From Fimbriimonadaceae bacterium (GTDB lineage: Bacteria; Armatimonadota; Fimbriimonadia; Fimbriimonadales; Fimbriimonadaceae), in NCBI GenBank assembly GCA_019638775.1, contig JAHBTD010000005.1:3345-67344 (forward strand): 64,000 nucleotides of DNA, written 5' to 3'. The notes beneath the pieces are model-generated. The model saw nothing but the letters and a program-made list of their open reading frames with translations. It was not told where the DNA came from and did not search any database. Below, in pieces: positions 4,276-60,301 of the stretch (the stretch's first letter is position 1; each line of letters starts with the position of its first letter). Both the position numbers and the translations under genes were made by a program.

Positions 4276-4282
4276 GTTGGGA

Positions 4283-4303
4283 GCGATGAGCGATGAATGA
4301 TGA
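4283..4303 (+). repeat. Heptamer array (GCGATGA)2 ATGATGA
   Basis: Starts 8 nt after the permease stop codon (4273-4275). Each unit contains TGA. Confidence 0.85.
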
Positions 4304-4370
4304 ATAGGGAGTCTTGGACATCGAAGAGGGACGAGTTGGTGGGCTCAAGTGTGCTGCAATGACTTCTTTT

Positions 4371-4412
4371 TTCAGATTTCAGATTTCAGACCTCTGACCT
4401 CTGACCTCTGTT
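4371..4412 (+). repeat. Heptamer array (TTCAGAT)2 TTCAGAC (CTCTGAC)2 CTCTGTT
   Basis: Six in-phase 7-nt units, read directly. Lies 67 nt after the previous array, in a gene-free spacer. Confidence 0.9.
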
Positions 4413-56570: not shown

Positions 56571-57104
56571 TCATGGGGTGGTGGAATGTGGCGGAAATTC
56601 CCATACCATTTGACCAGTTAAGACAGTTGGCTCAGGGTCTAGCTTGTCGATGATCGCCTTGAACGGAGGGATCTTCCGAGCTTTTTCTTTTGTCGACTGA
56701 TACCACGACTCTTTTTGTTCGCGGGGAGTCATCACGCTCGCCATACTGGCAACGAGGAAGGCCGCTGAAGAGACCAGTACTAGAGCAAACTTCCGACGTC
56801 CGCGTACGATCTCGCCTTGTGGGCAATGCTTTGTCATGATCTTGCCATCGGGTCGCTGGACATATCGAATGCAGAGGCGGCCTTCGTGGGTGTTGACCAA
56901 ATGCTCGGCATCTTCGCGGCTCATCCCGGAGAGGTTGTAGACGTTGAGCTTACAGAGTCCGCAATAGCGGACCTCGTCGTCGCCCTCCATCTCTTTCCAA
57001 GAGGTCGGGCAGGGGGAGCCAACTCGAACCTGATCCAACGAAATGAGTTTGTCCGTAGTTTTCATCTTATTTGTTAGTTGTTTGGCGAGGGGCAAATTGT
57101 TCAT
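56571..57104 (-). CDS. Cys-rich N-domain protein with one TM helix
   Basis: ATGA overlap with the upstream stop. CPTSW...RYCGLCKLNVYNLS Cys motif. TM helix FALVLVSSAAFLVASMASV. Confidence 0.6.
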   Translation of the reverse strand: MNNLPLAKQLTNKMKTTDKLISLDQVRVGSPCPTSWKEMEGDDEVRYCGLCKLNVYNLSGMSREDAEHLVNTHEGRLCIRYVQRPDGKIMTKHCPQGEIVRGRRKFALVLVSSAAFLVASMASVMTPREQKESWYQSTKEKARKIPPFKAIIDKLDPEPTVLTGQMVWEFPPHSTTP

Positions 57105-58201
57105 CCACTTTTTTGCACAAACCTGCTCACAACGACCATTCCATCTTCCTTGAGCGTGAGGAATCGTTGTGCCCCGCGATGGTAGCGGTCTGGGCGCATG
57201 TTCTTCTTGTGAAAGATACGGTCGCCGGTTTGGATGTCCCAGACGCCAGTGCCGCTAACGTACGAGATCGCAAACAAGTACTTGTCGAACACCAGCCAAC
57301 CCCATTTTCCTGTGGAATAGGAGGCCGGTCGGCTCGGCTCAATCAACGGCTTTTGGATGAACTGCAATTCTAATCCGGTCTTGACGTCATAAATGCCGAC
57401 GCCCCGTTTTGGCTCGAAACCAACTTCACCCTTGCCCCAGATTGCCAGCCTGTTTCGATCAATCCAGCATAGGCCAATGTCCCAAATATAATTCCGGAGA
57501 GCAAACTTGCGAATGCTCAATCCATCCTCTGACTCCCACACGTTTTCGTCAATCCACTTTTCCAGGCTCCATGTTCTGACCTCTCCGTGGGGATGCCAGA
57601 TCCAGCCGTTGTCAGCGATCCATTTGCCGTCAGGAGAAACGGCGAGACTGCAGTGGAAATAGTCAAGGTCGTGGGGTGGACGTTCATCTTTAGAATAGTC
57701 TGGCGACTCCCGAACAGTGATCAGTTCACCAGTCGAAGGATCGGAGATATCCAGACGGTTCCAGTCGGTGCAGTGAATCAGCAGAGTCCGGCCCTTGTGC
57801 TTTATGAATGCAATAGGGAATGAAGAGATACTCGGGTAATAGTTTCCTCTTTTGAGAGGCATCGTCAGCTGACCTGTAGTGAGATCGATCACATGACCGA
57901 CTTCGCCATATCGCTCCACAACCGCGCAAAACCTCTGATCTGGAGAGACGTGCAATTGAATTGTCTTGTCCTGATCAAGCCGAGAAATGTCGATTTGGAG
58001 CGCGCCACGCAAGCGCTTGAACTCAAGGTCCCCTGCTTCCTTGACTTGGGCATTGAAGAAGCTAAGAGTTCCATCTTGCTCCAGCGTGATCCAGCGGCAT
58101 TGGCTCCGGCTGTGGACGGGTTGGATGTCCAGCAACTTCCCACGCAAGGGAAGCTTGGCAGGCTTACTGTGCCGAAAAGAGTAGGGTGACTCCTCTTTCA
58201 A
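57101..58201 (-). CDS. Beta-propeller-like hypothetical protein
   Basis: 366 aa with repeated W/D-rich strand patterns (SPDGKWIADNGW, IWDIG, GVWDIQTGD). 4-nt overlaps at both ends. Confidence 0.6.
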   Translation of the reverse strand: MKEESPYSFRHSKPAKLPLRGKLLDIQPVHSRSQCRWITLEQDGTLSFFNAQVKEAGDLEFKRLRGALQIDISRLDQDKTIQLHVSPDQRFCAVVERYGEVGHVIDLTTGQLTMPLKRGNYYPSISSFPIAFIKHKGRTLLIHCTDWNRLDISDPSTGELITVRESPDYSKDERPPHDLDYFHCSLAVSPDGKWIADNGWIWHPHGEVRTWSLEKWIDENVWESEDGLSIRKFALRNYIWDIGLCWIDRNRLAIWGKGEVGFEPKRGVGIYDVKTGLELQFIQKPLIEPSRPASYSTGKWGWLVFDKYLFAISYVSGTGVWDIQTGDRIFHKKNMRPDRYHRGAQRFLTLKEDGMVVVSRFVQKSG

Positions 58202-58509
58202 CGTGAGGTCGGAACCTCCCGAACAGGATGGATGCTCGCCTCGACTTTTGACATCTGCATCAGTGGCAGCACCTTGGTGCGCCTTGGGTCGTCCCGAAAC
58301 GCCTCAAAGGCCTGCTCCGACGGGAACCAAACAAGGTGCACTTCTACCGTGTCGTCCAAGCTGCGCACGCGTCGCTGAAGTTCTCCTCCATGCTCTTGCA
58401 GAAGAGGTAGGACTGCGTCCTCGTGTTGGTCGAATAGTTGGAGCCCGTCCGGATTGAGTTGGAAGATCGCTAACAGGGTGACGCCGACATTTTGTGTCAT
58501 TGCGCTCAA
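58198..58509 (-). CDS. Small alpha+beta (DUF1330/Dabb-like) hypothetical protein
   Basis: 103 aa. 4-nt overlaps with both neighbours. The fold guess is by eye only. Confidence 0.5.
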   Translation of the reverse strand: MSAMTQNVGVTLLAIFQLNPDGLQLFDQHEDAVLPLLQEHGGELQRRVRSLDDTVEVHLVWFPSEQAFEAFRDDPRRTKVLPLMQMSKVEASIHPVREVPTSR

Positions 58510-58997
58510 TCGCCAAAGTGCGGTGTGTCTTCGCGATCCACCATCAGGCCGGGGATCTTAGACGTGAGCCTAACGCAAGCGTTCCATCGCAAAATTGCAT
58601 TTTCATTGCCGGGTGGGCGCAATGATTCCGCAAGCGCGTACTTTTCCATTGCACGCTTGAGCCAATCTCCAACGAACGAGGCGTGGGCGCCCTCCTGCAG
58701 CTTGGCTCGTGCCCAACGCTCGCAGGCGATGCCGCCGTAGTATGCCTTTTCGTACTCGCTTCCCATTTGCTCTACAACCACGTTAGCATCTTCTACTTTC
58801 GTTCCATGCCTGAGATGGAATTGGTCGGTAATGGCTAGGAAAAGGGAATGCTGTGCCTCGACGTTGTTGGGATCGACAGCAAGGACGTCGCGGCAGATGC
58901 TGGCGGCCTGAGCGGGCTCACTGAGCAGTCGGTAGCGCTCGGCAAGGGCCAGGGCGCGAGGGATGGATTCAGTGGAAATGCGTTTAAGTTCGGGCAC
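58506..58997 (-). CDS. TPR-like helical hypothetical protein
   Basis: 163 aa, helical, ...ALALAERYRLLSEPAQAASICRDVLAVDPNNVEA... First gene of a four-gene overlapping set. Confidence 0.6.
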   Translation of the reverse strand: MPELKRISTESIPRALALAERYRLLSEPAQAASICRDVLAVDPNNVEAQHSLFLAITDQFHLRHGTKVEDANVVVEQMGSEYEKAYYGGIACERWARAKLQEGAHASFVGDWLKRAMEKYALAESLRPPGNENAILRWNACVRLTSKIPGLMVDREDTPHFGD

Positions 58998-59009
58998 GGG
59001 GGGCCTCCA

Positions 59010-59039
59010 AACGATGAACGATGAACGATGAACGATGAG
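59010..59039 (+). repeat. Heptamer array (AACGATG)4 AG; left arm of the inverted repeat around the four-helix-bundle gene
   Basis: 59023-59039 GAACGATGAACGATGAG is the exact reverse complement of 59481-59497. Confidence 0.95.
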
Positions 59040-59072
59040 TAAGAATCTCCCATTCGTGAGCTCGTAATAATG

Positions 59073-59444
59073 TCATTTCTTTCGCTCCTTTGCTTTCTTC
59101 ACTGAGGCTACAAAGATCCGGGTGAGCTCTCCTGCTTCTGTCAGAATAGGCTCAACTTGTTCCTTTGAGGCTACACCAGCTTCAACAAGTAGTTCGTGCC
59201 AATAGCACGTCTCTTCCAATTCTTGCAATGCGACCTCCAGTTTACTGATGAACTCAGCGGTTGATCTGGCCCGATAACCTTCGCGATAATGAGCACCTAC
59301 TGATGCGCCCGATCTTACAGCCTGTTTTCCAAAAATCTGCGCAACGGTGCCGTTTGGTAACGATGAGTAAAGCCGAACTACTTCAATCGCAAAGCCCTTA
59401 GTTCTCCTATGCAAATCTTGAAGCTTGCTATTCGGCTCGATCAT
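59073..59444 (-). CDS. Four-helix-bundle protein (23S rRNA intervening-sequence protein / S23p family)
   Basis: ...FAIEVVRLYSSLP...IFGKQAVRSGASVGAHYREGYRARSTAEFISKLEVALQELEETCYWHELL... is the family signature. 123 aa. Confidence 0.85.
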   Translation of the reverse strand: MIEPNSKLQDLHRRTKGFAIEVVRLYSSLPNGTVAQIFGKQAVRSGASVGAHYREGYRARSTAEFISKLEVALQELEETCYWHELLVEAGVASKEQVEPILTEAGELTRIFVASVKKAKERKK

Positions 59445-59480
59445 TGTCTCCTACGATCTCCGTCAGTGTAAGCGCTCTTT

Positions 59481-59564
59481 CTCATCGTTCATCGTTCCTA
59501 CTTCATCGTTATCAATCATTGCTCCCCCTTCATCACTCCTCAATCCTCATTCATGATTCATTTT
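59481..59564 (-). repeat. Degenerating heptamer array, about 12 units (CTCATCG TTCATCG TTCCTAC TTCATCG TTATCAA ...); right arm of the inverted repeat
   Basis: In phase for 84 nt. On the minus strand most units contain TGA. The array runs into the sdhB stop codon (59558-59560). Confidence 0.85.
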
Positions 59565-60301
59565 TTCTTGCCAAACCGGAACAGCTTCGCCAGTGGATCG
59601 TAATGCGCGTCCACAACTCTTTCTTTCAACGGGATAATCGCGTTGTCCGTGATCTTGATATGTTCCGGGCAGACCACCGTGCAGCATTTTGTGATGTTGC
59701 AATAGCCGATGCTGTCGCGTTTTTTTAGGTCGTCGATGCGGTCTTCCGTATCCAGCGGGTGCATCTCTAAAGCTGCCGAATACACAAACAGTCGCGGTCC
59801 GATGAATTCGTCGTGCTTCTTATGCTCGCGCAGGACGTGGCAGACGTTTTGGCACAGGAAGCACTCGATGCACTTTCGGAACTCCTGCACGCGCTCCACG
59901 TCTTCTTGGTCGATGCGCCAAGTGCCGTCTTCGGCATCGGGCTTGCGAGGCTTGAACGGCTTGATGGTCTTCTTGGCGCGGTAGTTCCACGAGACGTCGG
60001 TGACGAGGTCTTTGATGAGCGGAAACGCCTTCATCGGCTCGACCTTGACCGGCTCATCAAGGGGAAGATCGCTACACCGGGTCATGCACATCAGGCGCGG
60101 CATGCCGTTGATCTCGGCAGAGCAGGAGCCGCATTTGCCGGCTTTGCAGTTCCAGCGCACCGCCATGTCGGGGGCGTGCTCGGCCTGGATCTGGTGGATG
60201 ACGTCGAGGACAACCATGCCTTCGGTGACTTCGGCGGGGTAATCCTCAAACTTGCCGTCTTCGGCGGTCCCCCGCCAGATTCTAAAAGTAACTCTTGCCA
60301 T
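59558..60301 (-). CDS. sdhB: Succinate dehydrogenase/fumarate reductase iron-sulfur subunit
   Basis: Cys clusters CKAGKCGSCSAEING, CIECFLCQNVC and CTVVCP. 1-nt TAATG overlap with sdhA. Confidence 0.9.
   Translation of the reverse strand: MARVTFRIWRGTAEDGKFEDYPAEVTEGMVVLDVIHQIQAEHAPDMAVRWNCKAGKCGSCSAEINGMPRLMCMTRCSDLPLDEPVKVEPMKAFPLIKDLVTDVSWNYRAKKTIKPFKPRKPDAEDGTWRIDQEDVERVQEFRKCIECFLCQNVCHVLREHKKHDEFIGPRLFVYSAALEMHPLDTEDRIDDLKKRDSIGYCNITKCCTVVCPEHIKITDNAIIPLKERVVDAHYDPLAKLFRFGKKK

Follow-up and report, generated by a model that had tools for sequence, protein, structure and literature searches.

A 64,000-nucleotide stretch of contig JAHBTD010000005.1 from a Fimbriimonadaceae bacterium (assembly GCA_019638775.1; hereinafter the window) carries, directly behind the gene for the iron-sulfur subunit of succinate dehydrogenase/fumarate reductase (sdhB), an inserted cassette of about 550 nt (59010-59557) in which a gene for a four-helix-bundle (4HB) protein is closed by inverted arrays of heptameric repeats. 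This locus is a real and well-delimited cassette with heptamer arms, similar to the intervening sequences (IVS) of 23S rRNA and residing in a protein-coding operon, and the evidence presented below shows that an IVS-type cassette was inserted here and has spread horizontally. Questions about the origin and mobility of the rRNA IVS, and about the function of the S23p/4HB open reading frame (ORF) that they encode, have stood since the early 1990s, as has that of why heptameric repeats are over-represented in bacterial genomes. The locus and its relatives display the IVS module outside rRNA, with a clean distinction between filled and empty junctions, cross-phylum spread with conserved arms and a protein under purifying selection.

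The initial annotation had described a perfect 17-bp inverted repeat around a 123-aa gene, with arms made of (AACGATG)4 on the left and of a degenerating array starting at the sdhB stop codon on the right, and had placed the gene on the strand that also holds the sdh genes upstream and four ORFs downstream; all of this was borne out. Over 17 nt, GAACGATGAACGATGAG (59023-59039) and CTCATCGTTCATCGTTC (59481-59497) are perfect reverse complements of each other, and these cores are part of extended arms (59010-59044 and 59476-59510) of 35 nt each that are 89% complementary. Tandem Repeats Finder (TRF) recovers (AACGATG)4.1 with 100% matches at 59010-59038 and, from 59482, a degenerating period-7 array that reaches the sdhB stop codon and comprises about 11 units. 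Read in the sense of transcription these units run ATGAATC ATGAATG AGGATTG ... AACGATG AACGATG AG, and the TGA stop of sdhB (59558-59560) is itself the first TGA of the array. The gene for SdhA upstream of sdhB, sdhB itself, the 4HB gene and the four downstream ORFs all lie on the minus strand (Table 1). The sole family matches of the 123-aa protein are to PF05635 (E = 1.7e-18; 67 bits against a cut-off of 33.8) and to the TIGR02436 'four helix bundle protein' model (86 bits against a cut-off of 24), no HUH/Y1 transposase match of the IS200/IS605 TnpA-like type being among them, and its best solved relative is PDB 2RLD (E = 1.3e-20).

Comparison of orthologous junctions shows that the cassette is an insertion between the sdhB stop and the start of the downstream gene, since the corresponding junctions are empty elsewhere. 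In three other genera of the same family (G012, G017 and G013) the stop codon of sdhB is adjacent to, or overlaps with, the start of the downstream orthologue (ATGA or TAATG), and on seven metagenome contigs with an orthologue of the downstream ORF (45-56% identity) sdhB ends 4-20 nt before it. Among these junctions and that of the window, the filling of ~550 nt is found only in the present genome, and none of the ten empty junctions contains a hairpin. The downstream protein begins with MELK... or MEFK... in the three genera and with (GTG)PELK... here, behind a GGAGG touching the 3' array, which implies that the insert, or a later change, replaced the coupled ATG start. The empty junctions also decide the fate of a reading in which the 4HB gene functionally belongs to the sdh operon, for example by acting in assembly or regulation, with the repeats serving as expression signals. 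While the shared strand, the tight spacing, the gene's own Shine-Dalgarno sequence and the conservation of the protein are in keeping with such a role, the gene is absent from 10 of the 10 orthologous junctions examined, its paralogues occur in unrelated operons (groES-groEL, frr-uppS and an ABC transporter), and its closest relatives in other phyla sit in equally unrelated contexts (ABC transporter, tRNA cluster, restriction-modification and cas loci). Given the empty junctions we rejected this reading as effectively refuted, and we attach almost no probability to it. The locus and its relatives also warn against interpreting 4HB genes inside cas, restriction-modification and metabolic operons as working together with those operons, an interpretation that has been given to the 23S_rRNA_IVP genes of cas operons (PMC3936711).

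Table 1. Parts of the cassette and the genes on either side of it (window positions)
Feature	Position	Strand	Basis or remark
sdhB, succinate dehydrogenase/fumarate reductase Fe-S subunit	59558-60301	minus	Pfam Fer2_3, Fer4_8
5' arm (transcription sense), ~11 degenerating heptamers, perfect core 59481-59497	59476-59557	minus	TRF period 7, inverted pair, folds
Inner 5' spacer, 31 nt, with the cassette gene's own Shine-Dalgarno GGAG (GTAGGAGACA before ATG)	59445-59475	minus	sequence
4HB gene, 123 aa	59073-59444	minus	PF05635 / TIGR02436 '23S rRNA intervening-sequence protein' family
Inner 3' spacer, 28 nt, from stop codon to 3' arm	59045-59072	minus	sequence
3' arm, sense TCTTACT(CATCGTT)4, perfect core 59023-59039	59010-59044	minus	TRF, inverted pair, duplex energy
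GGAGG (59004-59008), CCCCCC, GTG start (58995-58997)	58995-59009	minus	sequence, fold
Downstream ORF, 163 aa, without family match	58506-58997	minus	first of four overlapping ORFs
Four ORFs with overlapping stop/start codons 3' of the cassette	58506-58997, 58198-58509, 57101-58201, 56571-57104	minus	

The closest relatives of the window protein, 16 in number (53-63% identity), are found in other phyla, namely in Phycisphaerales, Thermoguttaceae, Isosphaeraceae, Chloroflexaceae, Anaerolineales, Thiocapsa, a metagenome-assembled genome (MAG) of Actinomycetota, and Acidobacteriota. Period-7 arms are present on at least one flank in 14 of the 16, with AAGGATG or a one-base variant of it in 11; the (A/G)AGGATG array on the upstream side often continues into the ATG, with TTCATCC arrays on the downstream side. 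The AACGATG/CATCGTT of the window is a one-base variant of AAGGATG/CATCCTT, altered on both arms. Inside this cross-phylum clade the tree pairs the window copy with one from Phycisphaerales as its sister (support 99/83); none of the copies from 40 relatives of the family belongs to the clade. Anaerolineales orthologues separated by synonymous divergences (dS) of 0.85 to >1 still have AAGGATG arms, and the 4HB relatives of the window clade show ratios of nonsynonymous to synonymous divergence (dN/dS) of 0.03-0.16. Judging from these ratios the protein is under purifying selection, and, taken together with the arms retained at such distances, they indicate that protein and heptamer are both conserved beyond neutral expectation.

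The decisive comparison on whether the arms belong to the moving unit comes from two recently duplicated copies in one planctomycete genome (L160 and L166 of G057; 91% identical), whose homology spans the upstream array, the gene and the downstream array and ends where the arrays end. A second pair (L079 and L084) shares only the ORF and is not decisive because its members are only ~75% identical. Two further copies reside on complete plasmids: one in Ca. Chlorohelix, between helicase and N6-methylase genes and with ATGAAGG arms, and the other in Pseudanabaena, between csx2 and cas1. Along with the ten empty junctions and the cross-phylum clade, these findings support the mobility of the element that the initial annotation had proposed, and such sequence comparisons show the cassette to have evidently crossed phyla, its arms being part of the unit that moves. 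No transposase ORF is present in the cassette, and no direct duplication was seen at the ends of L160 and L166 or at the window junction; an enzyme supplied in trans would be conceivable. A related fold is known from Avd, the accessory protein of diversity-generating retroelements, which binds nucleic acid and reverse transcriptase (PMC10053308) and is a pentameric four-helix bundle homologous to the 4HB protein; unlike Avd systems, the cassette lies near no reverse transcriptase, template repeat or variable repeat. The window protein goes unmatched by the Avd model NF033474, which picks up the groES-linked paralogue only far below its cut-off. None of the 4HB genes of the genome is linked to a reverse transcriptase, the single one of which stands alone on contig C50 (38481-40023; a 514-aa frame with a long C-terminal extension) without an Avd/4HB neighbor and may be of the defense type.

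Two of the relatives have unusual settings. In a Pyrinomonadaceae MAG (L045, 2850-3500) a window-type cassette lies between two tRNA genes, a stable-RNA transcription unit that is intermediate between the rRNA and operon contexts. In a Chloroflexaceae MAG (L037, 2723-3700) the 4HB gene has a complete local hairpin on each side, formed by a G-array of 140-215 nt, a 9-nt loop and a C-array of ~100 nt.

The same layout recurs at most of the other 4HB genes of the genome (4.3 Mb, 55.7% GC), which contains seven PF05635 matches. A survey of these paralogues for flanking inverted arrays, as suggested in the initial annotation, recovered inverted heptamer arms at six of the seven, each with a heptamer of its own: AACGATG after sdhB in the window, GTAAGGA / TTGTAAG between groES and groEL, GGGCGTT between frr and uppS, GTCGTGA between an ABC permease and its ATPase, GTAGATT after a RidA-like gene, and AGCGATC at C61:87240. 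With armed paralogues here and an empty site in relatives, these parts of the test that the initial annotation had set for itself speak for its reading. A frameshifted eighth copy (C39:974962-975500) has ATTTACG arms, and the seventh match is longer, divergent and without heptamer arrays. Just downstream of groEL (C39:558082-558294) a longer divergent PF05635-like gene, in a 190-aa frame and without arms, is situated among palindromes of the GTCCTATAGGAC type. To quantify the bracketing we used a local-alignment score of one flank against the other, as TRF alone misses degenerate arms such as those of the groES and C61 cassettes. Applied to 1026 ORFs of this genome with lengths of 100-200 aa, it gives inverted scores with a median of 8 and a 99th percentile of 18.75; the window gene scores 25 (rank 6), far above chance expectation, and five of the six armed 4HB genes fall in the top 14. 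The remainder of that list consists of IS200 genes resembling REP-associated tyrosine transposases (RAYT; REP, repetitive extragenic palindrome), DUF559-like genes, rpmB and one unknown ORF.

Extending the score to 82 loci, drawn from 40 other genera of the family, this genome and the 16 cross-phylum relatives, gave a median same-locus inverted score of 19.75, against 8.5 for cross-locus pairs (95th percentile 12.5) and 9.0 in direct orientation. TRF places period-7 arrays on at least one flank in 57 of the 82 loci and on both flanks in 40, where the two units are mostly identical or one base apart; the arms have a median of 4.3 units. Six genomes were reached through the cross-phylum loci (records from Planctomycetota, Pseudomonadota, Chloroflexota, Actinomycetota and Acidobacteriota), and 16 of their 19 4HB copies are bracketed. 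Six long-armed loci compared with Rfam matched no family.

The spacer between groES1 and groEL1, which could be read in 25 of 30 genera sampled, is a single site that has been colonized repeatedly and is found in three main states: empty, gene-carrying and arms only. It is empty (19-55 nt) in seven genera and holds a 4HB cassette (455-650 nt) in ten; in four others it holds a gene-less inverted heptamer hairpin (145 nt in G031, 119 nt in G044, 193 nt in G017 and 85 nt in G003). A cassette is also present at the second groES paralogue in four genomes, and the groES1 copies must, according to the tree, have arisen at least twice. The hairpin of G017 has the GTTGGC heptamer of the cassette clade found at this very site, and that of G031, (GTAAATC)4...(GATTTAC)4, shares its heptamer with a gene-bearing cassette at another site of that genome; the gene-less arms of these two genera fit a derivation from cassettes. 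Searches with tblastn recovered no coding remnants in the gene-less groES-groEL hairpins. The loop of the G031 hairpin also contains GTCCTATAGGAC-like palindromes. Other inserts occupy the spacer in four genera: in G037 (L110) it measures 919 nt and has a 269-aa ORF matching PF05635, in G015 (L088) it measures 1247 nt and is without a 4HB match, in G008 (L099) it is 299 nt long and GC-rich, and G051 is the fourth.

Gene-less hairpins could also mean that the arrays and hairpins are features of the host, be they slippage-prone repeats or regulatory or structural elements, and that a bare 4HB gene lands in their loops as it does in the helix loops of rRNA. The genome-wide occurrence of mostly gene-less arrays, the four gene-less spacers just described, the different arms at each cassette within one genome and the ORF-only homology of L079 and L084 would all accord with this, as would published accounts of heptamer excess, which name no gene family (PMC4692102, PMC2700814). 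Against it, the homology of L160 and L166 takes in the arms besides the gene, the window protein clade retains AAGGATG arms across several phyla at unrelated sites, no hairpin awaits a gene at the ten empty sdhB junctions, and the GTTGGC of the G017 hairpin, being that of the local cassette clade, is better explained by gene loss than by a virgin target. We therefore consider a landing of bare genes in host hairpins improbable.

The closest structural parallel is with the ORF-bearing IVS of 23S rRNA. In the 23S IVS of Coxiella burnetii, an S23p ORF goes together with a 28-bp stem and with tandem heptamers, the first of which is where RNase III cuts (Warrier et al. 2016, PMC4990558). The cassette resembles such IVS (those of Leptospira and the S23p-encoding one of Coxiella, PMC4990558) in encoding a member of the PF05635/TIGR02436 family, in its size (~430-550 nt), in having the ORF in a loop closed by terminal inverted repeats, and in being promoter-less and riding on a highly transcribed host unit; a selfish nature or a mobile past has also been suggested for the 23S IVS. 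With the Coxiella IVS it further shares tandem heptamers in the 5' stem region beside the start codon, which are variable in copy number; in the cassette there are ~11 units upstream of the ORF and 4 downstream. The analogy drawn in the initial annotation thus receives strong support, the protein family being the same and the gene-sized loop being closed by a stem of tandem heptamers. The cassette differs in its location at a cistron junction of a protein-coding operon, and not in helix 25 or 45 of 23S rRNA. Moreover, the Coxiella ORF is decaying and probably untranslated, whereas the genes of the window clade appear to be under strong purifying selection and have a good Shine-Dalgarno sequence. 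Excision by RNase III, which has been shown for IVS, would be expected of the cassette by analogy. The host's own 23S rRNA has no IVS in either of its two complete genes, which are of normal length (2897 and 2953 nt) and give full-length model matches. A third, partial 23S rRNA (C104:623-2424) matches the model in three abutting pieces and could represent either contamination (estimated at 3.96%) or a divergent copy.

How the cassette lives within its operon is a separate matter from its insertion and spread. We lean, by a modest degree, towards the view that an IVS-type promoter-less 4HB cassette was inserted at the sdhB junction, is transcribed by read-through and has arms that pair into a processed stem. 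In this scheme the sdh operon transcript would extend through the cassette, and its arms would pair into a stem of ~31 bp that might act as a processing site in double-stranded RNA, as it does in the homologous 23S IVS; cleavage there would set the cassette mRNA free and part the cistrons on either side, while the 3' end of the insert would supply a new GGAGG-GTG start for the downstream gene, so that the operon would remain functional. By analogy with the IVS, RNase III would be the most likely agent of such processing. Several observations are consistent with this. The duplex of the two arms has an energy of -44.3 kcal/mol, compared with -23.1 +/- 3.3 for shuffled arms, and folding of the 581-nt sense RNA pairs the arms in the minimum free energy (MFE) structure as well as in the centroid structure (z = -3.67). 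No promoter- or terminator-like site was found on the sense (minus) strand of the cassette region. In clear calls, 4HB genes are co-oriented with their neighbors by 24:9 upstream and 27:4 downstream, and the genome has the RNase III gene rnc (228.9 bits). The start region of the downstream gene directly abuts the 3' arm (TGGAGG, CCCCCC and GTG in sense order), and in the MFE fold the C-run before the GTG pairs with a GGGGG in the 5' array.

Other results weigh against a processed RNA stem or temper the association behind it. Over 76 arm pairs, G·U and A·C mismatches number 108 and 130 (p = 0.17); this absence of a G·U excess gives no specific support for selection acting on an RNA stem, and complementarity may instead be kept at the DNA level. 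Only 25 of the 451 heptamer arrays of the genome have an inverted partner within 3 kb, most being single-armed, from which it follows that the repeats have an existence independent of stems. A loop of 441 nt that is being translated may rarely let the arms meet, and the samples of 4HB loci are enriched for heptamer-rich lineages.

The main alternative is a system operating on DNA in the manner of RAYT and their REP doublet elements (REPIN), in which the arrays would be terminal repeats or binding sites and the 4HB protein their cognate factor, RNA pairing being incidental. The protein would bind runs of 4-5 heptamers and would maintain or spread gene-carrying cassettes and gene-less arrays alike. 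As in RAYT/REPIN systems, a small gene is enclosed by a repeat in inverted orientation, further copies of which are scattered without a gene through intergenic parts of the genome, and different gene copies pair with different repeat families. The heptamers of the genome's own cassettes occur at 17-81 sites in it (4 for the groES cassette), compared with a median of 9.5 sites for the heptamers of foreign cassettes (p = 0.003). The AACGATG family accounts for 32 sites, including the two arms, and some of these are gene-less hairpins (C50:489919-489981 and C50:493175). The density of period-7 arrays is 1.7 per 100 kb in 11 genomes that lack 4HB genes and 13.8 in 9 genomes with at least two (p = 0.012, a value that ignores phylogeny; sampled 20-kb stretches, with eight of the 9 genomes having at least four copies), while other repeat periods are equal (31 vs 35). 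The lack of a G·U excess, the arms inside the duplicated unit of L160 and L166, the arm length of 4.3 units, the purifying selection on the protein, and the fact that other small genes bracketed by inverted repeats in this genome are RAYT-like or DUF559-like selfish genes all point the same way. The solved relatives of the 4HB protein are homopentameric rings.

A number of features fit poorly with such a system. We know of no nuclease or recombinase chemistry in a four-helix bundle, the HUH/Y1 motifs of RAYT are missing from the protein, and no target-site duplication is visible at L160 and L166. Also unlike RAYT/REPIN, the repeats are tandem heptamer arrays and not single palindromes, and repeat and gene correspond only loosely, as sister proteins can differ in heptamer (L079/L084 and L033/L051). 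The largest array family of the genome, GGATTTT (74 arrays), has no 4HB partner in it, genome G007 has seven 4HB copies and no arrays in the 60 kb sampled, and the comparison of array load between genomes is uncorrected for phylogeny. We treat a DNA-level system as a serious but less probable explanation than that of a transcribed cassette with a processed stem.

The arrays themselves conform to a wider pattern. Among the tandem repeats of this genome, those of period 7 predominate (451 of 1909 TRF rows, in 339 clusters), so that heptamers are over-represented here as they are among intergenic heptameric simple sequence repeats (SSR) of the short tandemly repeated repetitive (STRR) type. Repeats of this kind include the STRR of heterocystous cyanobacteria, and an excess of heptamers with inverted pairs has been reported for Xanthomonas (GGGAATC) and Nostoc (GGGGAYT) (Rehm et al. 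2015, PMC4692102); Geobacter metallireducens has elements of 4-5 heptanucleotide repeats (PMC2700814). The arrays described here resemble these in consisting of few period-7 units, in being mostly intergenic near the end of the upstream ORF and between co-directional genes, in often forming convergent inverted pairs, and in drifting rapidly in length and sequence. Those studies name no gene family and propose G-quadruplexes or regulator sites, whereas here the arrays bracket, and travel with, one gene family. A trend in polarity, with the G-rich arm following stop codons, is only indicative since the crude ORF map used for it misplaced arrays, putting 188 of them inside spurious ORFs. In the searchable literature we found no description of the armed 4HB cassette as a class outside rRNA. 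A more speculative proposal, which we put forward tentatively and consider more apt to fail than to hold, is that PF05635 4HB genes and heptamer arrays constitute one pan-bacterial system, in which a ring-shaped oligomer would recognize ~4-5 heptamers and maintain cassettes and gene-less arrays or spread them into transcribed junctions; the 23S IVS would then be copies that landed in rRNA, and the bacterial heptamer excess would be the footprint of the system. In any event, the questions about the IVS and about the heptamers become amenable to experiments on protein-repeat binding, RNase III processing and mobilization.

Further arrays and bracketed genes deserve mention. The initial annotation had pointed to similar arrays, with no gene between them, at 4283-4412 of the window; such arrays do exist (4281-4410; GAGCGAT, TTTCAGA and GACCTCT), but as they are not mutually complementary they do not represent an empty version of the bracket. 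At 96-221 of the window there is an 18-unit heptamer array of CGTGAGG and TGAGTGC types, without an inverted partner, whose GTCGTGA units match the arms of the cassette at C1:1057292. Elsewhere in the genome a housekeeping gene occupies the same type of bracket, as rpmB (ribosomal protein L28), beside a tRNA gene, is enclosed by long inverted AGCGATC/AGCTATC/AGCCGAT arrays (C61:42600-43400). The strongest flank complementarity of the genome (score 48) belongs to an ORF of ~150 aa (MADLLQDRQRKL...; C1:700380-701200) between composite arrays of GGATTTT, GCCGAT, AGCCGAT and CTTACAA types. Three DUF559-like (Vsr-endonuclease-like) genes (C50:13853-14296, C39:916017-916421 and C50:526767-527237) are bracketed by hairpins of G-rich palindromes, GGGGAGGG...CCCTCCCC, in a layout that looks REP/RAYT-like with a different gene. 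Four IS200/RAYT-like genes (C39:925128-925658, C39:835137-835709, C61:147542-148108 and C1:812935-813435) are flanked by inverted REP-like palindromes and rank alongside the 4HB genes in the flank-complementarity test.

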